From Geotalea uraniireducens Rf4 (GTDB taxonomy: Bacteria > Desulfobacterota > Desulfuromonadia > Geobacterales > Geobacteraceae): a stretch of DNA of 32,000 nt. The position numbers and the translations under genes were made by a program. Location of the stretch: assembly GCF_000016745.1 (NCBI RefSeq), contig NC_009483.1:1560001-1592000 (forward strand), given 5' to 3'. Each line of letters starts with the position of its first letter. Position 1 is the first letter of the stretch. Shown piece by piece: positions 4,229 to 32,000 of the stretch. Under the pieces are notes generated by a model. That model worked only from the letters and a program-made list of their open reading frames with translations, was not told the origin of the DNA and ran no database searches.

Positions 4229-6265
<2,037 letters not shown>

Positions 6266-9678: not shown

Positions 9679-9849
9679 ATGTGTCTCCCTGAAATACTCT
9701 GTTTTTCACCTGTTAATCCATGATGAGAAACCATTGTACCCGAAGCGGCGGCTTTTTCAAGGAGTGGCGTCGGTTGGCGAAAAACAGTTCTCCTTTGCCT
9801 GATTTTGTGGTAGAAGTGAACGATTATTATCTGAAAAGGAGAATAACGG

Positions 9850-10365
9850 ATGAGTGACGAACAAAACCCCCAGGTCCTGATGGAAACTTCCATGGGAACC
9901 GTAAAAATCGAGCTGTTCAAGGACAAGGCGCCCATTTCCGTGCGCAACTTCCTCTCGTATGTGAAGGAAGGCTATTACGATGGTCTGATCTTCCACCGGG
10001 TTATCAAGACCTTCATGGTTCAAGGTGGCGGGCTGGACGTGGACATGCAGCCGAAGAAGACCAAATTCGCCATCAAGAACGAGGCAGCCAACGGCCTTTC
10101 CAATAAGCGCGGCACCCTTGCCATGGCCAGGACCAGCGTGGTGGACAGCGCAACATCCCAGTTCTTCATCAATGTCGTGGATAACTCTTTCCTCGACTAC
10201 AAGGGGAAAAGCCCCGATCTGTTCGGATATGCCGTGTTTGGGCAGGTAATTGAAGGAATGGAAGTGGTGGACGCCATTAAAGAGGTGAAGACGGGGTCGA
10301 AGGGTGGTCACTCGGACGTGCCGGTTGAGCCTGTGTTCATCAAGTCTATGACAATCGTTGAATAG
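9850..10365 (+). CDS. ppiB: Peptidyl-prolyl cis-trans isomerase, cyclophilin type
   Basis: 171 aa: [39 protein letters not shown] is upstream. Confidence 0.9.
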
Positions 10366-10388
10366 TGAGTGGTGAGTTATGAGTAGTG

Positions 10389-10424
10389 ACGGCCGCGGGA
10401 AATCCTGCGGCCGTTATTATTTGT
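10389..10424 (+). terminator. Rho-independent terminator after the cyclophilin gene
   Basis: ACGGCCGCGGGA-aa-TCCTGCGGCCGT (one mismatch) followed by TATTATTTGTT. Confidence 0.6.
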
Positions 10425-10452
10425 TGACAAACAATTTTGCCGACTATAAAAT
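10424..10452 (+). promoter_or_regulatory. Sigma70-type promoter for metK
   Basis: TTGACA (10424-10429), a 17-nt spacer, then TAAAAT (10447-10452), about 55 nt upstream of the metK ATG. Confidence 0.55.
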
Positions 10453-10508
10453 TCAAAGTCTTTTTTAACATTTTGCACGTCATTACCATATTGAGGAGGA
10501 TTAATAAG

Positions 10509-11678
10509 ATGGAAATGAAGGATTTTATCTTTACATCTGAGTCTGTCTCCGAAGGCCATCCCGACAAGGTTGCCGACCAGGTTTCCGATGCTATTCTTGA
10601 CGCTATTCTTACCCAGGACCCCAAATCGCGGGTTGCCTGCGAAACCTTGGTGACCACCGGCATGACGGTTGTTGCCGGGGAAATCACCACCAACGCCATC
10701 GTCGATTATCCGAAGATCGTCCGTGAGACCATCAAGGAAATCGGCTACAACGACTCGGCCATGGGCTTCGACTGGGAAACCTGCGCAGTGCTTACCTCCA
10801 TCGACAAGCAATCTCCGGACATCGCTCAAGGGGTTACCGAAGGCGAAGGGCTGTTCAAGGAGCAGGGGGCCGGTGACCAGGGGCTCATGTTCGGCTACGC
10901 CTGCAATGAGACGCCGGAGTTGATGCCGATGTCGATCCTGCTCTCCCACAAGCTGGTGAAGAAGCTTGCCGACGTCAGAAAGAGCGGCGTGCTGGACTTC
11001 CTTCGCCCGGATTCCAAGTCCCAGGTTTCCATCCAGTACATCAACGACAGGCCCGTGCATGTGGATACCGTGGTCATCTCTTCCCAGCATACCCCCGAGG
11101 TTTCATACGAAACCATCAAGGAAGGGATCATCGAAGAGGTCGTGAAGAAGATCATCCCTGAGGAATTGATGGACGCCAAGACCCGTTTCCTTATCAACCC
11201 GACCGGCCGGTTCGTCATCGGCGGGCCGATGGGGGACTGCGGTCTTACCGGCCGCAAGATCATCGTTGATAGCTACGGCGGGCACGGCGCCCACGGCGGC
11301 GGTGCATTCTCCGGCAAAGACCCCTCCAAGGTGGACCGTTCCGCCGCATACATGGGGCGTTACGTGGCCAAGAACCTGGTTGCCGCCGGTCTCTGCGAAA
11401 AGTGCGAAGTACAGGTGGCATACGCCATCGGCGTTGCAGAGCCTGTTTCCGTCATGGTCGATACTTCCGGCACCGGCAAGATTCCTTCTGCAAGGATCGC
11501 CCAGATTGTCCGCGAAGTCTTCGACCTCCGCCCCCGCGCCATCATCGAGCAGCTTGACCTGCTCCGTCCGATCTACAAAAAGACTGCCGCTTACGGCCAC
11601 TTCGGCCGCGAACTGCCTGAATTCACCTGGGAGCGCACCGACAAGGTTTCCATCATCAGGGAAAAGGCAGGAATTTAA
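10509..11678 (+). CDS. metK: S-adenosylmethionine synthetase
   Basis: [56 protein letters not shown]. The start is at MEMKDF (10509) after GAGGAGGA, giving 389 aa, the normal MetK length. Confidence 0.95.
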
Positions 11679-11687
11679 CGGCAGGCG

Positions 11688-11762
11688 CGAGGTCCGAGGT
11701 CCGAGGTCCGAGGATCGAGGATCGAGGATCGAGGATCGAGGATCGAGGATCGAGGATCGAGG
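11688..11762 (+). repeat. Heptanucleotide tandem array: (CGAGGTC)x3 (CGAGGAT)x7 CGAGG
   Basis: Counted directly. It starts 10 nt after the metK stop codon and ends 16 nt before the terminator stem. Confidence 0.95.
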
Positions 11763-11778
11763 TAAAACCCTGAATAAG

Positions 11779-11808
11779 AAAGGCCGGTGAAATTTCACCG
11801 GCCTTTTT
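11779..11808. terminator. Rho-independent (probably bidirectional) terminator shared by the convergent metK and response-regulator genes
   Basis: AAAGGCCGGTGAAA/TTTCACCGGCCTTT is a perfect stem, with TTTTATTGTTTT on the + strand and TTTCTTATT on the - strand. Confidence 0.85.
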
Positions 11809-11816
11809 ATTGTTTT

Positions 11817-13741
11817 GTGCGCCAGGCATGGCGCGTGGCGCGTAAGCGCCATCCAATTGGGTATGGTGCCTGATTGGTGACTTGGAGGTGAAAGTCCTCT
11901 TCGGACCCTGATGGTGGGAACCGATAGCTGAACAGCAAGGGTGTCCGGGGCGACCCGGAATCTGAAGGAAGCTGTAGGCAAAGTCCTGGCCCGACGAACA
12001 GGAATCGCATATGAGGCAGCCACATCTGGGCGAGAAGGCAAACAGATTCAAAGCCCGATAACCATCCAGAAAGATGTGGAAGTAGATGCGGCGGGTATAT
12101 GGGATGAAGGTCACGCGCATTACCCTGGGAGGTCTGTCAACCTGCCTTGTGCTACCGGCATCGAGAGGTGCCGGGATGGGTTGGCAGAAGTCAGCAGAGG
12201 CCATACGAGTCGGAATAACCGACCGACAAAGGGCCGAACTTGAAGTAAGCGGACAGGAGCCTTGAGTTTCGATGACGACAGGAGCAGCAGAAGGCCGGGT
12301 TGGGATACCCGGCGCCAGCCCGGAGGGTAGCGGTTGGAAACCGCGAGAGAAAGGGAGAGGTGCGGCAAACGTCACGGGAAGGAAAGCAGCTCACTGGCCG
12401 GAAGCGGCAACGGGACTGATGGAGAAGATCGTCAGTCGCGGCAACATGATGGCGGCATACTCACGGGTAATGCGCAACAAGGGAGCGCCCGGCGTCGATA
12501 ACATGCCGGTAACGGCCCTGAAGGGCTACCTACAGGAGGAATGGCCGCGCATCAGAGAAGAACTGCTGACGGGAACGTATCACCCGCAACCGGTGCGGAA
12601 AGTAGAAATTCCCAAACCGGGAGGCGGCACACGGATGCTGGGAATTCCCACCGTCCTTGACCGACTCATTCAGCAGGCGGTGCATCAAGTTTTGAGCCCG
12701 CTGTTCGACCCTGGTTTCTCCATAAGTTCCCACGGGTTTCGCCCTGGACGGAGCGCCCATCAAGCGATCAAGGCAGCTCGGAAGTATGTAGAGAGCGGCC
12801 TTAGGTGGGTGGTTGACATTGACCTTGAGAAATTTTTCGACCGAGTCCACCACGACACCCTTATGTCGCTGGTGAAACGCAAGGTTGGAGACCGTCTGGT
12901 GCTGTCCCTTATCGACAGCTACCTTAAGGCAGGGATACTTGAAGGAGGAGTGACGTCACCCCGGTTGGAAGGCACGCCGCAAGGCGGGCCTCTCTCGCCG
13001 CTGCTGTCCAACATCCTCCTCGACGAACTGGACAAGAAACTGGAAAGAAGGGGCCATAAGTTCTGCCGCTATGCCGACGACGCAAATATCTATGTTGCAA
13101 CGAGGAGAAGCGGCGAGCGTGTCATGGCCTCAATTACCGGCTACCTGTCCGAGCGGCTCAAGCTCACGGTCAACCAGGGCAAAAGCGCGGTTGACCGTCC
13201 GTGGAAAAGGTCGTTTCTGAGTTACAGCATGACCCGGCACCGCAAACCGCGGCTTACCGTGGCCAAGAAAGCGGCTGCCAGGCTCAAGGCCAACCTCAAG
13301 ACGATCTTTAGGCGGGGAAGGGGTCAGAACATCCAAACCACCGTTGAAGAGACAACCCCGAAACTTAGGGGTTGGTTAAACTACTTTCGGTACGCGGAAG
13401 TAAAAGGCATCTTCGAGGAACTGGACGGATGGCTGAGACGTAAACTGCGTCGCATTCTCTGGAAGCAGTGGAAGCGCCCCAAGACGCGAGCAAAGAAACT
13501 GATGCGGCGGGGATTATCGGAGGCAACTGCATGGCGGTCGGCCACAAACGGCCGCGGCCCCTGGTGGAATGCAGGGGCCGCGCATATGAACAAAGCTGTT
13601 CCGAAATTCTACTTCGACAAACTGGGGCTGGTATCACTCATAGACCAGCTTCACCGACTTCAACGTACTTCATGAACCGCCGTGTACGGAACCGTACGCA
13701 CGGTGGTGTGGGAGGACGGCGGGAGCAATCCCGCCTCCTAC
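11817..13741 (+). mobile_element. Group II intron, class C (IIC)-like, about 1.9 kb
   Basis: The 5' end is GTGCG at 11817. An internal RT/maturase ORF is present. Domain V-like helix at about 13678-13707 (CCGCCGTGTACGG-AA-CCGTACGCACGGTGG) has a 2-nt bulge and a CGC triad instead of AGC. A domain VI-like helix is GGAGGACGGCGGGAGCAATCCCGCCTCC, ending ..CTAC at 13741. It is inserted about 10 nt after a terminator hairpin, in the same orientation. The 3' boundary is good to a few nt only. Confidence 0.85.
12419..13675 (+). CDS. ltrA: Group II intron reverse transcriptase/maturase (no endonuclease domain)
   Basis: KGAPGVDNM (RT0/1), PKPGGGTRMLGIPTVLDRLIQQA, GTPQGGPLSPLLSNILL, RYADDANIYV (YADD catalytic box), and maturase X domain RGWLNYFRYA. 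The C-terminus is GPWWNAGAAHMNKAV..LGLVSL with no HNH. The start was set at MEKIVSRGNMM (12419); the upstream part of the track ORF is intron RNA. Confidence 0.9.
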   Translation: MEKIVSRGNMMAAYSRVMRNKGAPGVDNMPVTALKGYLQEEWPRIREELLTGTYHPQPVRKVEIPKPGGGTRMLGIPTVLDRLIQQAVHQVLSPLFDPGFSISSHGFRPGRSAHQAIKAARKYVESGLRWVVDIDLEKFFDRVHHDTLMSLVKRKVGDRLVLSLIDSYLKAGILEGGVTSPRLEGTPQGGPLSPLLSNILLDELDKKLERRGHKFCRYADDANIYVATRRSGERVMASITGYLSERLKLTVNQGKSAVDRPWKRSFLSYSMTRHRKPRLTVAKKAAARLKANLKTIFRRGRGQNIQTTVEETTPKLRGWLNYFRYAEVKGIFEELDGWLRRKLRRILWKQWKRPKTRAKKLMRRGLSEATAWRSATNGRGPWWNAGAAHMNKAVPKFYFDKLGLVSLIDQLHRLQRTS

Positions 13742-13764
13742 CCGATTTCGTCCCCAACTCCCCG

Positions 13765-28363: not shown

Positions 28364-28399
28364 TGGCGCCGTGAGGAGTGAGGAGAAATGGTCATCAAG

Positions 28400-28426
28400 G
28401 GGCAACCAGCGGGTTGCCCTTTTTTT
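28400..28426 (+). terminator. Rho-independent terminator (after the M24 peptidase gene)
   Basis: GGGCAACC-agcg-GGTTGCCC followed by T7. Confidence 0.85.
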
Positions 28427-28470
28427 GATTCATTCCCATGTTTTAGAAGTATTTAAATATCTAATGTTAA

Positions 28471-28498
28471 TTGACTATGCCAGTGTTTATGGTATGTG
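28471..28498 (+). promoter_or_regulatory. Candidate sigma70 promoter of the small-ORF/AsnB-like operon
   Basis: TTGACT, a 16-nt spacer, then TG-G-TATGTG (extended -10-like). The conserved box ATTAATTTGCAATGATT (28506-28522) lies at the predicted transcription start. Confidence 0.5.
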
Positions 28499-28578
28499 AA
28501 TTGGTATTAATTTGCAATGATTAAGATGCGCGGTCTAGGGTTGATAAGTCAGGAATAATAGCCAAGGAGGAAAAAACG

Positions 28579-28752
28579 ATGGACAACAAAAAGAGCAAAA
28601 GTGCAGCAATCACCGCTGGCACCGGCGAGACTTGGGATACAGGGTCCTGCCGTACATGGAGCAAACCCATAGTCACGCGTATCAACATTAAGAAAACTAT
28701 GTTGTCAACTGGCAGTGTTAATGATGGCGATGGAAGTACCAATGAAGGGTAA
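28579..28752 (+). CDS. Unannotated 57-aa small ORF: candidate RiPP (lasso-like) precursor peptide
   Basis: It is below the 60-aa cutoff of the ORF track. A strong SD, AAGGAGG, lies 8 nt upstream of ATG 28579. Translation: MDNKKSKSAAITAGTGETWDTGSCRTWSKPIVTRINIKKTMLSTGSVNDGDGSTNEG. It sits 87 nt upstream of, and co-directional with, an asparagine-synthetase-like gene. Confidence 0.6.
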   Translation: MDNKKSKSAAITAGTGETWDTGSCRTWSKPIVTRINIKKTMLSTGSVNDGDGSTNEG

Positions 28753-28839
28753 CACACACGTATGTCGGCCACCAGGAGTCTTGCCCGAGAACGCGGGCAG
28801 CAAATACTTAAAAAGACATATTGTGCCCCAGGAGTATAA

Positions 28840-30759
28840 ATGAGCTGTATCTTCGGTTTTTTACGGCGTGATGGTGCTTCAATCGCACCGCTTACCATGG
28901 AGACCATGCGGCGTCACATGGCTGAATGGGGGCCGGACGGCGGTGACGTGTTGCTGGACGGTCCTGCGGCGATGGGACAGATGCGTCTGTTCAGCACGCC
29001 TGAGGCGACGTATGAGAAGATGCCGCTCATTGATGCGGCAGAGGGCTTCATCTTTACCGCGGCCGGACGCGTGGACAACCGGCAAGAGTTGATCGCGGAT
29101 TGCGGATTGCGGATTGCCGAATATGAAAAATGCGGAATCCCGGATGGTGAAGTGATCCTTCAGGCCTATCGCAAATGGGGCGAGGATTGCCCGAAGCGCA
29201 TTTACGGAGACTGGTCTTTCGCCGTATGGCATCCCCGTGAACGCAGGCTTTTTCTCGCCCGCGACCACTATGGCAACACATCGCTTTATTATTATGCAGA
29301 CCGGCATGTGTTTGCCTTTGCTTCTGACCGCAAAGCATTGCTCGCACTGGACCTTGTGCCCAAAGAGATGGACGAACTCTACCTTGCACAGGTGCTGGTT
29401 TCGTGGCCTGCTTATCACGGAGAGCGCACCATCCACACGCCTGTTAAGCGCCTGCCGCCTGCGCATTGCCTGACAGTTTCGCATGAACGCCTCGATGTGC
29501 GCCGGTATTGGCGATTGGAAGAGACTCCCGAACTGCGCCTGCCACGGCGTAATGATTATGTAGAGGCATTTCGCGATCTGTTCGATGAGGCGGTACGCTG
29601 CAGACTGAGGGTTGCAAACGGCGGCAACACACAAGGAAATGGGGCCGGGCAAATTGCCGTAACACTCAGCGGGGGGCTGGATTCCGGGTCGGTTACTGCC
29701 ACGGCGGCGCATTTCCTGCGTAACGAAGGTAGACGCCTGACAGCTTTTACTTCTGTGCCGCTTTCGGATACAAGCGCCTATGTAAAAAAGAACTTTGGCG
29801 ATGAGTTTCCCTTTGCCCGGTCTACCGCGCAATTCGCCGGGAATGTAGATCATCTGCCCATCACCGCGGCAGCAATTACGCCCATACAGGCAATTCGTCG
29901 GATGCTTCGGATTCACGGCGAGCCGGCGCACGCCGCTGGAAATTTTTTCTGGATGCTGGAGCTGGAAGAGACTGCACGTGCCTGTGGCTGCCGTGCCCTG
30001 CTCACCGGTCAGGTGGGTAACGGTGGCATCTCATGGACAGGTGATGTGTTCTCACAGCCGCTCGCATTGCAGTTACGCCATTATGGCTGGAGGAAATGGA
30101 CAAAGGAAAGCGCAAAGCGGATTGCATCCCCTGTCTTGCTGAAGGCATACCGCCGCGCGCGAATGCCGAAGGATTATTCATGGTGCCAATCATCCGCCAT
30201 CCATCCTGATTTTGCTCGCCGCTTGAACCTGCTGGAACAACGATTGAACGACCCTGCCGAGCATCCGCGCAGTCCGCAAGAAAAGCGTTTTCAGATTCTC
30301 CAGCCCGGCTGCTCCTTTGTCGGTGCGCTGCATGCCCAAATGGGGGCAGCTCACGGGCTGGAAATACGCGACCCTACTGCAGATGCACGTGTCCTCGCCT
30401 TCACGCTCTCGGTGCCCGACTACATCTTCATGGACCCGACGACGGGGCTGGATCGTTGGCTCATCCGCGAGGCCATGAAGGGCCGTCTGCCGGACGAGGT
30501 GCGTTTAAATCGCGAGAGGGGTCGTCAGGCGGGCGACCTTGTCCCTCGGCTTCGCGCCTGCGCCGACGAGGTAGAAACCGCCCTGGACGAGTTGGCCGTG
30601 GGGCCTGCGGCCGCCTATCTAAATGTGCCTTATATGCGCGAGGTGTGGGCAATGGTCCGCACCGATGACACTCCGGAAGCTTTTCGCAAGTCGGTAACCA
30701 TTCTCACCAGAGGCATCATGGCCGGATTGTGGGTGAATGGGTTCTACAATGTAACCTGA
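28840..30759 (+). CDS. Asparagine synthetase B-like ATP-dependent amidotransferase (lasso-peptide-cyclase-like)
   Basis: 639 aa. The N-terminal Ntn-like domain starts MSCIFGF, so the Cys is not at position 2. The PP-loop SGGLDS lies at nt 29668-29685 (IAVTLSGGLDSGSV), followed by an AsnB-type C-terminal domain. SD AGGAG is 5 nt upstream. Confidence 0.88.
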   Translation: MSCIFGFLRRDGASIAPLTMETMRRHMAEWGPDGGDVLLDGPAAMGQMRLFSTPEATYEKMPLIDAAEGFIFTAAGRVDNRQELIADCGLRIAEYEKCGIPDGEVILQAYRKWGEDCPKRIYGDWSFAVWHPRERRLFLARDHYGNTSLYYYADRHVFAFASDRKALLALDLVPKEMDELYLAQVLVSWPAYHGERTIHTPVKRLPPAHCLTVSHERLDVRRYWRLEETPELRLPRRNDYVEAFRDLFDEAVRCRLRVANGGNTQGNGAGQIAVTLSGGLDSGSVTATAAHFLRNEGRRLTAFTSVPLSDTSAYVKKNFGDEFPFARSTAQFAGNVDHLPITAAAITPIQAIRRMLRIHGEPAHAAGNFFWMLELEETARACGCRALLTGQVGNGGISWTGDVFSQPLALQLRHYGWRKWTKESAKRIASPVLLKAYRRARMPKDYSWCQSSAIHPDFARRLNLLEQRLNDPAEHPRSPQEKRFQILQPGCSFVGALHAQMGAAHGLEIRDPTADARVLAFTLSVPDYIFMDPTTGLDRWLIREAMKGRLPDEVRLNRERGRQAGDLVPRLRACADEVETALDELAVGPAAAYLNVPYMREVWAMVRTDDTPEAFRKSVTILTRGIMAGLWVNGFYNVT

Positions 30760-30820
30760 AATTGAGATGAGTGAAAACATTACTTGCAGACGGTGGATAG
30801 TGAAGAGGAAAAGTCATCAA

Positions 30821-30847
30821 GGGCAACCAGCGGGTTGCCCTTTTTTT
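30821..30847 (+). terminator. Rho-independent terminator (after the AsnB-like gene)
   Basis: GGGCAACC-agcg-GGTTGCCC followed by T7. Stem and loop are identical to those at 28400-28426. Confidence 0.85.
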
Positions 30848-30892
30848 GAATTCGTTCTCATGTTTAAGAAGCGTTTAAATAGAAAATAATAA

Positions 30893-30920
30893 TTGACAGT
30901 GTCCTGGTTTGTGGTATTTA
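30893..30920 (+). promoter_or_regulatory. Candidate sigma70 promoter of the GNAT/tail-collar operon
   Basis: TTGACA, a 16-nt spacer, then TG-G-TATTTA (extended -10). The conserved box ATTAATTTGCAATAATT lies at 30929-30945. Confidence 0.5.
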
Positions 30921-31079
30921 GATTTAACATTAATTTGCAATAATTGTTAAACTTTATTTTTTGGTAAAGCATACCTGGTATGTCAACCAATCTCAGGCGT
31001 TCTTCAGCGATTCAGAAGCATCTGTCGCTCTCATGTGATTTGGTACGATATGTTGGACATGTCGAACGTCTGGATTCCC

Positions 31080-31583
31080 ATGGAAAACCATAACACCGCC
31101 ACGAAAAGGAGCGAAACTATCCATTTCCGCCCCATTACTGATGAGGATATGGAATTCCTGTACCGTCTGTACGCCTCCACGCGGCTCACGGAGATGGCCG
31201 TTACGGGATGGAACGAAACTCAGATCGAGGCTTTCCTGAGGATGCAGTTCAGGCTTCAGCACATGCAGTATATGCAGAACTATCCCGGTGCATCTTTCAA
31301 TATCGTTTTCATTGACGGCACGCCCGCCGGAAGGCTGTATGTGGACCGCAAAGAGGACAGGATGCTGGTCATCGACATCTCGCTGTTGCCTGACTTCAAG
31401 GGAAAAGGCGCGGGGGGAAGAATTTTGCGGGCACTGGTCGAAGAGGCCGATGCCAAGGGGCTTGTCATGAGTCTGCACGTGGAGAGAAGCAACCCGATTC
31501 TGCAGTTCTATAAAGCGCTCGGTTTTAGGGAACTGGAGTTGAGAGGCATGTACTACTACATGGAGAGAGAACTGTTAAATTGA
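31080..31583 (+). CDS. GNAT-family N-acetyltransferase
   Basis: IHFRPITDEDMEFLYRLY... is followed by the acetyl-CoA-binding motif LLPDFKGKGAGGRILRALVEEA and then FYKALGF. The start is uncertain: the ORF is open from 31035, ATG codons lie at 31059 and 31080, and none has a good SD. Confidence 0.75.
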   Translation: MENHNTATKRSETIHFRPITDEDMEFLYRLYASTRLTEMAVTGWNETQIEAFLRMQFRLQHMQYMQNYPGASFNIVFIDGTPAGRLYVDRKEDRMLVIDISLLPDFKGKGAGGRILRALVEEADAKGLVMSLHVERSNPILQFYKALGFRELELRGMYYYMERELLN

Positions 31584-31591
31584 GGAAAAAG

Positions 31592-31720
31592 ATGGGTGAA
31601 GGTTACCGGCTGTCACACCCAGACATTGGGGATTTCGTTCTTTTCCTCGGACCGGTGGATATCAAAGGGAGAGACGGGATGTATTACGAAGCGGTTTTTA
31701 ACCGTCTGACGTCACGCTAG
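31592..31720 (+). CDS. Unannotated 42-aa ORF, hypothetical
   Basis: MGEGYRLSHPDIGDFVLFLGPVDIKGRDGMYYEAVFNRLTSR. SD GAGGA is 5 nt upstream, and the ATG is 8 nt after the GNAT stop. It lies between the GNAT and tail-collar genes and is below the ORF-track cutoff. Confidence 0.4.
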   Translation: MGEGYRLSHPDIGDFVLFLGPVDIKGRDGMYYEAVFNRLTSR

Positions 31721-31835
31721 AGAAAGGAGGTCAGGGGGGGCACGTGGGAAATGAGTACCTATGTGCGTACTCCATGGTTTGCTTCACCTTGGTCGGCAGC
31801 GCATAACAATCCAGATCAAAAGGAGGAACAAAAGC

Positions 31836-32000
31836 ATGAGCGATCCGTATCTTGGCGAGATCAGGATGTTCGGCGGAGACTATGCGCCGGAGAATTGGCA
31901 TTTTTGTGACGGCACTCTGCTGCCGATCAGTGGCTACGATGCGCTCTATTCACTCATCGGCACAGCCTACGGCGGTGACGGGATCAACAACTTCGCCCTG
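31836..32000 (+). CDS. Phage tail-collar domain protein (microcystin-dependent-protein/MdpB-like), 5' partial
   Basis: MSDPYLGEIRMFGGDYAPENWHFCDGTLLPISGYDALYSLIGTAYGGDGINNFAL is the canonical N-terminus of tail-collar (PF07484-type) proteins. SD AAAGGAGGA is upstream, and the ORF runs off the window end. Confidence 0.8.
   Translation, partial: MSDPYLGEIRMFGGDYAPENWHFCDGTLLPISGYDALYSLIGTAYGGDGINNFAL

Follow-up and report, generated by a model that had tools for sequence, protein, structure and literature searches.

A stretch of 32,000 nucleotides from Geotalea uraniireducens Rf4 (contig NC_009483.1, forward-strand positions 1,560,001 to 1,592,000; referred to below as the window) carries, near its downstream end, a gene for a 57-amino acid peptide, A1, followed by a gene for a 639-amino acid homologue of the asparagine synthetase AsnB, C1. 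Judged by their sequences, A1 and C1 are a genuine lasso peptide precursor and a ring-forming enzyme and not orphans, and a complete second lasso cluster lies downstream of them. The pair is very probably an additional precursor and macrolactam synthetase module of a paeninodin-like locus that would be served by two proteins of the neighboring cluster, B1, a PqqD-family protein of the RRE type (RiPP recognition element; RiPP, a peptide made on the ribosome and modified after translation), and B2, a leader peptidase with a transglutaminase core.

Genes for B1 and B2 were sought in the window and in its continuation, contig L001 (13.2 kb), which was found via the same-genome paralogue P0038, is identical to the window at 5451 of 5451 overlapping bases, and runs past the window's end. 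A Pfam scan of the 26 further open reading frames of the 32-kb window detected no PqqD-like or transglutaminase-like protein. On L001, gene calls and Pfam placed B1 at 38335-38631 and B2 at 38603-39067 (positions beyond 32000 are window equivalents here and below); B1 starts 7.6 kb downstream of the C1 stop codon, and the window ends 6.3 kb short of the RRE and peptidase genes. B2 scored 111.6 bits on NF033537 (curated cut-off 33). The best matches of B1 were lasso PqqD chaperones (lasso_PqqD_Bac), and its best matches with a solved structure were TbiB1 and a lasso PqqD chaperone. The split B1 and B2 expected of a lasso system are present, then, in the same locus as A1-C1 and outside the window. 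The L001 gene calls also gave a second precursor, A2 (56 amino acids; 33633-33803, or L001 7084-7254) and, with Pfam matches, a second cyclase, C2 (ABQ25552; 33881-35782), two HPr-kinase/ScmC-like genes (35772-37483) and a sulfotransferase (37476-38345). The two kinase-like paralogues, 3' of C2, are weak matches to HprK_rel_A/B and ScmC, and neither adjoins A1-C1.

The reading of A1-C1 as an orphan or minimal cassette is an artefact of the window edge, because B1 and B2 sit just past it on an identical contig. The original prediction had reported that no B protease or RRE accompanies the pair, which held inside the window and failed for the locus. Its description of a minimal two-gene orphan cassette was contradicted by the B1 and B2 genes 7.6 kb downstream and by the 13 other loci of the subfamily, all of which carry B1, and most of which carry B2, beside the cyclase. 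One of its two proposals, a lasso system with B and RRE functions encoded elsewhere, was essentially right, with the difference that "elsewhere" is the same locus.

A1 occupies positions 28579-28752 of the forward strand in the open reading frame list. As had been predicted, it is preceded by a Shine-Dalgarno sequence, AAGGAGG (28564-28570, forward strand, read from the sequence), 8 nt ahead of its ATG, and lies 87 nt upstream of C1, which has AGGAG 5 nt ahead of its own start codon. The gene had been described as hidden, but RefSeq already lists its product as hypothetical protein WP_157046145.1. Pfam and NCBIfam gave no match to the 57-amino acid sequence; because the precursor family has no model in either collection, its conservation was shown by alignment. 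The leader of 41 residues (28579-28701, forward strand) contains WSKP (28657-28668) with Trp at position -15 from the predicted cleavage site and Thr at -2 (28696-28698), that is, the [Y/W]xxP motif and the penultimate Thr of lasso leaders. The W, P, R, K and T(-2) positions are invariant in the precursor alignment, A1 included, and the subfamily signature W-x-x-P-x-[VI]-x-R-[IL]-x-[IM]-K-[KR]-T-[ML] recurs in all subfamily loci examined. A homologous small open reading frame with the same leader motif adjoins the cyclase gene in every subfamily locus surveyed. A WxxP motif with Trp at -15 is what paeninodin-type RRE proteins bind, as shown biochemically and structurally (PMC13381572). Direct reading of the last 17 leader residues shows 11 that are identical between A1 and A2, all invariant positions among them, and this agreement makes recognition of both by one B1 plausible.

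The A1 core, LSTGSVNDGDGSTNEG, comprises 16 residues and, with the stop codon, spans 28702-28752 (forward strand). Its Asp8 codon lies at 28723-28725, the predicted ring joins Leu1 to Asp8, and the remaining tail is GDGSTNEG. Counted from the predicted cleavage site, residue 8 of the core is Asp in A1 and also in all the full-length cores collected for the subfamily (18 of 18), which falls in the range of positions 7-9 where a lasso core has its ring-closing Asp or Glu. The first core residue varies across the subfamily (A, L, V, F, Y, Q or S), and the tails are 6-9 residues long and rich in Gly, Ser and Thr. In citrulassin-type lasso peptides Leu at core position 1 is joined to Asp8, and a bulky first residue is for that reason not without precedent; these peptides differ from A1 in being actinobacterial, in their leader type, and in their tailoring by a peptidyl-arginine deiminase. 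From these features A1 is a typical precursor of the subfamily, with predicted leader recognition, cleavage, and a macrolactam between residue 1 and Asp8. A specialization of C1 for a bulky first residue (Leu1, against Ala1 for C2) was considered and rejected, as single cyclases elsewhere serve precursors beginning with Ala and Val, with Phe and Ala, or with Leu, Leu and Phe. The A2 peptide, whose core is AGASVALDSSLFTTH, was present only in a protein collection from Logan assemblies and with no accession at NCBI; the public genome record seems to lack an annotation for it.

C1 (28840-30759, forward strand) is 100% identical to the G. uraniireducens protein ABQ25547.1, publicly annotated as "asparagine synthase", and contains Pfam Asn_synthase and GATase_7/6 domains. 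The PP-loop SGGLDS reported in the original prediction was found at residues 277-282 (29668-29685). The best NCBIfam model for C1 is the lasso cyclase NF033535, at 350.6 bits (353.5 bits for C2). On the asparagine synthase model TIGR01536 it scored 180.9 bits, under the cut-off of 267.1, and on the exopolysaccharide amidotransferase model 125.5 against a cut-off of 816.9; the lasso cyclase model ranked far above both. Motifs were checked in the 120 best C1 homologues, and conserved columns (at least 95% conserved, n=125) were derived from 116 homologues. SGGLDS is kept in 119 of the 120. The N-terminus of C1 reads MSCIFG, and from the MSC start it had been argued that glutaminase function is lost. 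That conclusion stands on a stronger reason: the residue ahead of IFG, the place of the AsnB nucleophile, is Gly or Ala in most of the 120 homologues and Cys in C1 alone. By these features C1 looks like a lasso C enzyme, AsnB-like, with a PP-loop and without a functional N-terminal Cys nucleophile, and not like a glutamine-dependent AsnB, given its MSC in place of MC, the lack of conservation of that Cys, and the TIGR01536 score. Its family, at 55-78% identity, extends across Geobacteraceae, Desulfobacteraceae, Nitrospirota, Chloroflexota, Brocadiaceae and Sporomusa. C1 departs from none of the 125 near-invariant columns, for which the family median is 2 departures, and by its sequence it is not decaying.

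In the pathway proposed for the pair, A1 would be translated from its own short transcript, and B1, a PqqD-type RRE, would bind the W-15 xxP ... T-2 motif of the leader. B2, a peptidase of the transglutaminase fold, would then cleave behind Met41. Using ATP by way of its SGGLDS PP-loop, C1 would adenylate the Asp8 side chain of the core and link it to the new amine of Leu1, giving an 8-residue ring. The calculated monoisotopic mass is 1508.623 for the linear core and 1490.612 for the ring-closed, dehydrated core ([M+H]+ 1491.619). The HPr-kinase-like pair and the sulfotransferase may modify Ser or Thr in the tail, adding bulk to hold the threaded lasso. By analogy with pseudomycoidin it can be speculated that Ser12 or Thr13 of the A1 core might be their target. 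We infer that the A1 product would be threaded and that it may be phosphorylated or sulfated.

The original prediction had assigned the pair a terminator of its own, and strong hairpins were indeed found on both sides of it (28397-28422 and 30819-30842; z of -3.6 and -3.3). The intrinsic terminator of the upstream M24 peptidase transcript (28397-28430, forward strand) has an 11-bp stem with 6 G-C pairs and a T-run (-20.3 kcal/mol, z = -3.56), and that of the A1-C1 transcript (30819-30849, forward strand) a 10-bp stem and a T-run (z = -3.31). The spacer between A1 and C1 contains a further hairpin without a T-run (28781-28800, forward strand; 7-bp G+C-rich stem; -22.5 kcal/mol and z = -1.9 for the whole spacer), which may, on this weak signal, be a partial attenuator or an mRNA-stabilizing element. 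A promoter-like element of the pair's own, also predicted, was not borne out: a sigma-70 scan gave no site upstream of A1, and across the region the 3 sites detected were in keeping with chance (2.2 expected). By eye, TTGACT (28471-28476) followed after 16 nt by TG-n-TATGTG can be recognized upstream of A1, a weak match that is yet kept in the second copy of a direct repeat. A sigma-54 reading of TGGTATTAATTTGCA was rejected, its GG-GC spacing being one base too short by eye. An Rfam scan of the window returned no RNA element in the A1-C1 cassette, the sole match being a group II intron elsewhere (11944-13746), with domains D1-D4 at 11944-12234 and D5/6 at 13675-13746 around a reverse-transcriptase/maturase open reading frame at 12272-13675.

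The direct repeat brackets A1-C1 exactly. Copy 1 (146 nt; 28377-28522, forward strand) contains the M24 peptidase terminator, the TTGACT promoter-like stretch and a ATTAATTTGCAAT box; copy 2 (30799-30945, forward strand) contains the A1-C1 terminator and a TTGACA promoter-like stretch ahead of the operon that begins with a GNAT acetyltransferase gene. Over a 148-nt alignment the copies are 79.7% identical (E = 3e-29), and both have a terminator, a TTGAC(T/A)-16 nt-TGnTAT stretch, and the conserved ATTAATTTGCAAT box. No copies of the 146-nt repeat beyond these two were found in the window and all fetched loci. The arrangement suggests an insertion or duplication through which A1-C1 gained a duplicate of the GNAT block's upstream regulatory region, and co-regulation of the two units through the repeat is possible.

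In agreement with the original prediction, Pfam identified an M24 peptidase upstream of A1, together with a nitroreductase, and a GNAT protein downstream of C1. The M24 peptidase was considered as a stand-in leader peptidase and rejected: it is an Xaa-Pro/creatinase-type aminopeptidase, a terminator separates it from A1, and it is absent from the other loci. The GNAT gene (31080-31583, forward strand; Pfam Acetyltransf_1 and an L001 gene call) opens the block leading to the second lasso module. It is followed by a DUF6916 gene (31592-31720, forward strand; from the gene call and comparison with Sporomusa) and by three genes with phage-tail-collar domains (31836-33491, forward strand, the first of them cut at 32000; L001 gene calls and Pfam). 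The DUF6916 product has 42 amino acids, against 104 in Sporomusa, and the alignment covers just the C-terminal part; it is probably a truncated remnant. Downstream of B2 the L001 gene calls gave a small EamA/SMR-like membrane protein (39111-39548). Elsewhere in the window, open reading frames of 431, 184, 237 and 312 amino acids at 767-2062 and 9757-12041 (both reverse strand) had no Pfam match; some of them may lie antisense to real genes and be non-coding.

The subfamily was surveyed through 13 other loci: the C2 module, Sporomusa L003, L004-L007 (taken as one), L008, L011, L044, L046 and L048-L053. Downstream of the cyclase, all 13 have one or two kinase paralogues, a sulfotransferase and B1, and most have B2 within 10 kb. 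The original prediction had asked whether a small open reading frame with the leader motif co-occurs with the homologues and whether B and RRE genes are consistently absent; the small gene did co-occur in all of them, but B and RRE genes were not consistently absent. C1 is the only one of the 14 loci examined without kinase, kinase, sulfotransferase and B1 genes directly alongside, and its closest relatives, P0002, P0003 and P0004 (77% identity), sit in complete clusters of cyclase, two kinases, sulfotransferase, B1 and B2. C1 groups with P0002-P0005 (76-78% identity) and C2 with P0053, P0061 and P0078 (76-78%), whereas C1 and C2 are 64-66% identical to each other. An origin of C1 as a recent duplicate of C2 is ruled out by these values, and because the two cyclases fall in different subclades with closer relatives elsewhere, A1-C1 is not a recent tandem duplicate. 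The module was probably acquired horizontally, and its sequence context suggests a piece of a second cluster that was set beside the resident one together with a copy of the resident cluster's terminator-promoter region.

Two cyclases beside one kinase, B1 and B2 set were also found in Oceanobacillus (L014, 10001-16136), Lederbergia (L015, 10001-16108) and Neobacillus (L022, 4079-11953), and because these Bacillaceae loci exist, the sharing of one such set is not unique in sequence data. In Neobacillus vireti L022 the second cyclase lies 2 kb past B2 and has its own precursor.

Several features of the sister clusters may be recorded in their own right. GNAT homologues upstream of the precursor and cyclase also occur in L003, L011 and L048. 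In four independent loci a GNAT gene, sometimes DUF6916, and three paralogous tail-collar genes (PF07484, about 180 amino acids) stand directly upstream of the lasso precursor and cyclase. These blocks lie at 31080-32000 of the window (L001 4531-6942), L003 5111-7592, L011 7561-9760 and L048 7187-9505, and their hosts are G. uraniireducens, Sporomusa silvacetica, a Geobacteraceae metagenome-assembled genome, and a metagenome contig. The cluster of P0002, 77% identical to C1, has two or three tandem precursors per contig (L004 7074-7865; L005 4496-5009; L006 2697-3488; L007 9074-9865) with a full leader and cores of 6-8 residues that lack Asp8. From these short cores (AGIGSPP, EMEEST and YEATAYV, with the variants VGIGSPPT and EMDGSG) a normal lasso would be impossible despite an intact cyclase. 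In L052 an extra B1-B2 pair (10942-11583) without an adjoining cyclase lies about 3.4 kb downstream of the complete cluster, amid toxin-antitoxin genes.

The assignment of A1-C1 to the paeninodin-like locus has to be weighed against several points. Both C1 and C2 score under the curated NF033535 cut-off of 525 bits; the model evidently does not cover this subfamily, because C2, which stands in a canonical cluster, scores as C1 does. That B1 and B2 would serve A1 is drawn from the similarity of the leaders. There is no evident need for a second cyclase, because in L046, L050 and L051 one cyclase serves two or three precursors with differing first residues. The A1 tail has no classical bulky plug residue, and by analogy with unmodified pseudomycoidin, as reported, the unmodified A1 product might be an unthreaded branched-cyclic peptide. 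A1 also ends in ...STNEG, without the C-terminal Ser that paeninodin-type kinases target; A2 ends in ...FTTH, and most of the Bacillaceae and cyanobacterial precursors surveyed alongside have Ser as their last residue.

Some of these points would also suit a different reading, in which a second cluster was once complete and A1-C1 is what is left of it, silent or non-productive, either unexpressed or yielding an unthreaded or degraded peptide without a role. C1 being the sole one of 14 loci without the adjoining tailoring and B1 genes, the plugless tail, the lack of a sigma-70 site above chance upstream of A1, and the sufficiency of one cyclase for several precursors elsewhere are all compatible with such a leftover. 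Both open reading frames are nevertheless intact, with strong Shine-Dalgarno sites on each, C1 deviates at 0 of 125 columns where the family median is 2, a conserved copy of the sequence ahead of the GNAT block lies upstream of A1, and the leader motif and Asp8 of A1 are preserved; we regard a leftover as unlikely. Far less probable still is an autonomous two-gene RiPP system, in which C1 would act on the leader-bearing peptide to form a side-chain isopeptide or to amidate Asp or Glu of the acidic tail. The pair does possess a strong ribosome-binding site along with a terminator of its own, the window contains no B or RRE gene, whether between the terminators or outside them, and a paeninodin-type cyclase has been shown to work without a leader peptidase on a leaderless core (PMC6993621). 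A1, however, retains the full leader signature for RRE binding and cleavage as well as Asp8, as in canonical clusters, C1 does not deviate at near-invariant family positions, its closest relatives are in complete clusters, and B1 and B2 are 7.6 kb downstream. The undescribed leader-retaining chemistry that the original prediction had entertained finds no support in so regular a precursor and enzyme.

A role of C1 as a glutamine-dependent housekeeping asparagine synthetase or an exopolysaccharide amidotransferase, with the small open reading frame spurious, can be practically dismissed. The Pfam domains and the public annotation point that way, but the scores on both corresponding models (180.9 and 125.5 bits) are under their cut-offs, the C1 family does not conserve an N-terminal Cys nucleophile, and a similar small open reading frame and lasso genes stand beside every homologue examined.

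The module of the paeninodin-like locus, the preferred reading, can be extended to a two-cyclase system in which an acquired module borrows the resident RRE and peptidase and a phosphate or sulfate on Ser or Thr of the tail acts as a steric plug. This fuller version is offered tentatively and is doubtful as a whole. If true, the product would be the first lasso peptide to bear sulfate, and the locus would exemplify the borrowing of modules between RiPP pathways; neither a sulfated lasso peptide nor a characterized two-cyclase lasso locus was found in the literature searched. Three sister lasso clusters that also have a sulfotransferase contain sulfate-activation genes (PAPS_reduct/CysD-like and a GTPase-APS-kinase fusion; L003 406-3086, L048 19268-21893, L049 4484-7389), which suggests that sulfotransferase chemistry is real in the subfamily and points to true sulfation of its peptides. 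No sulfate-activation genes were seen on the G. uraniireducens contig L001.

The closest described system is that of paeninodin from Paenibacillus dendritiformis (padeA-C-K-B1-B2-D), which shares the WxxP motif with Trp at -15, the Thr at -2, the split B1 and B2, an AsnB-like cyclase and HPr-kinase-like genes; paeninodin-like clusters also join residue 1 to Asp8 or Asp9 (PMC13381572; PMC8498205). In the defining traits that can be read from sequence, the system agrees with a lasso pathway of the paeninodin type. Regarding the marks of the kinase-associated subfamily, HPr-kinase-like genes were found in the cluster and a C-terminal Ser acceptor was not. Unlike paeninodin, the A1 core lacks the C-terminal Ser that is paeninodin's phosphorylation site, the Geotalea locus has two kinase paralogues and a sulfotransferase, and its tails are of 6-9 residues, rich in Gly, Ser and Thr. 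A1-C1 is also 3-8 kb away from the kinase, B1 and B2 genes, with the second precursor-cyclase pair in between, and Geotalea-type cyclases are about 28-33% identical to those of Bacillaceae.

Pseudomycoidin from Bacillus pseudomycoides (psmCAKB1B2ND) offers a second comparison. Its unmodified product is unthreaded, and the proposal was made that phosphorylation and glycosylation at the C-terminus keep the lasso threaded (PMC6993621). Like the locus studied here it is of the paeninodin type and has a tail without a sufficient plug, and its cyclase acts on a leaderless core without a peptidase (PMC6993621). Unlike it, A1 bears a full leader whose cleavage would be needed, the Geotalea locus has a sulfotransferase, and no NTP-transferase was seen on the contig. 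The Bacillaceae loci of Oceanobacillus piezotolerans L014, Lederbergia wuyishanensis L015 and Neobacillus vireti L022 resemble the Geotalea locus in having two AsnB-like cyclases and a single kinase, B1 and B2 set; in L014 and L015, however, the cyclases are directly adjacent, whereas in Geotalea five unrelated genes (GNAT, the DUF6916 remnant and three tail-collar genes) separate the modules. To our knowledge, no experimental study of the Bacillaceae two-cyclase loci has been made.

A lasso cluster of G. uraniireducens Rf4 has been listed before as Gura_1351, the tag of an asparagine synthase (Letzel et al. 2014, with reference to previous genome mining; PMC4289311), and it is almost certainly the same locus as A1-C1. 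As far as the available part of that paper goes, the listing has a single asparagine-synthase tag, corresponding to C1 (ABQ25547) or C2 (ABQ25552), and does not discuss a second precursor-cyclase pair; HPr kinase and sulfotransferase genes in such clusters are already remarked on there (PMC4289311). Putative sulfotransferases in paeninodin-like clusters have also been mentioned in reviews (PMC8498205).

The current understanding of lasso peptide biosynthesis is not overturned by these results: A1-C1 belongs to a known family and is ordinary within it, though slightly unusual. They carry a caution that a biosynthetic cassette that seems orphaned may merely be clipped by the edge of the window in which it is viewed. 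The lasso subfamily to which the pair belongs is widespread, in Geobacteraceae, Desulfobacteraceae, Nitrospirota, Chloroflexota and Sporomusa, and two HPr-kinase-like enzymes and a sulfotransferase are encoded in its clusters, some of which also have sulfate-activation genes. What remains of interest is the architecture, with its apparently shared machinery, and the putative phospho- and sulfo-tailoring of the subfamily. If A1-C1 is active, it would provide a natural test of whether one RRE and peptidase set can supply two cyclases, and a handle on possible sulfation or phosphorylation as a lasso plug.

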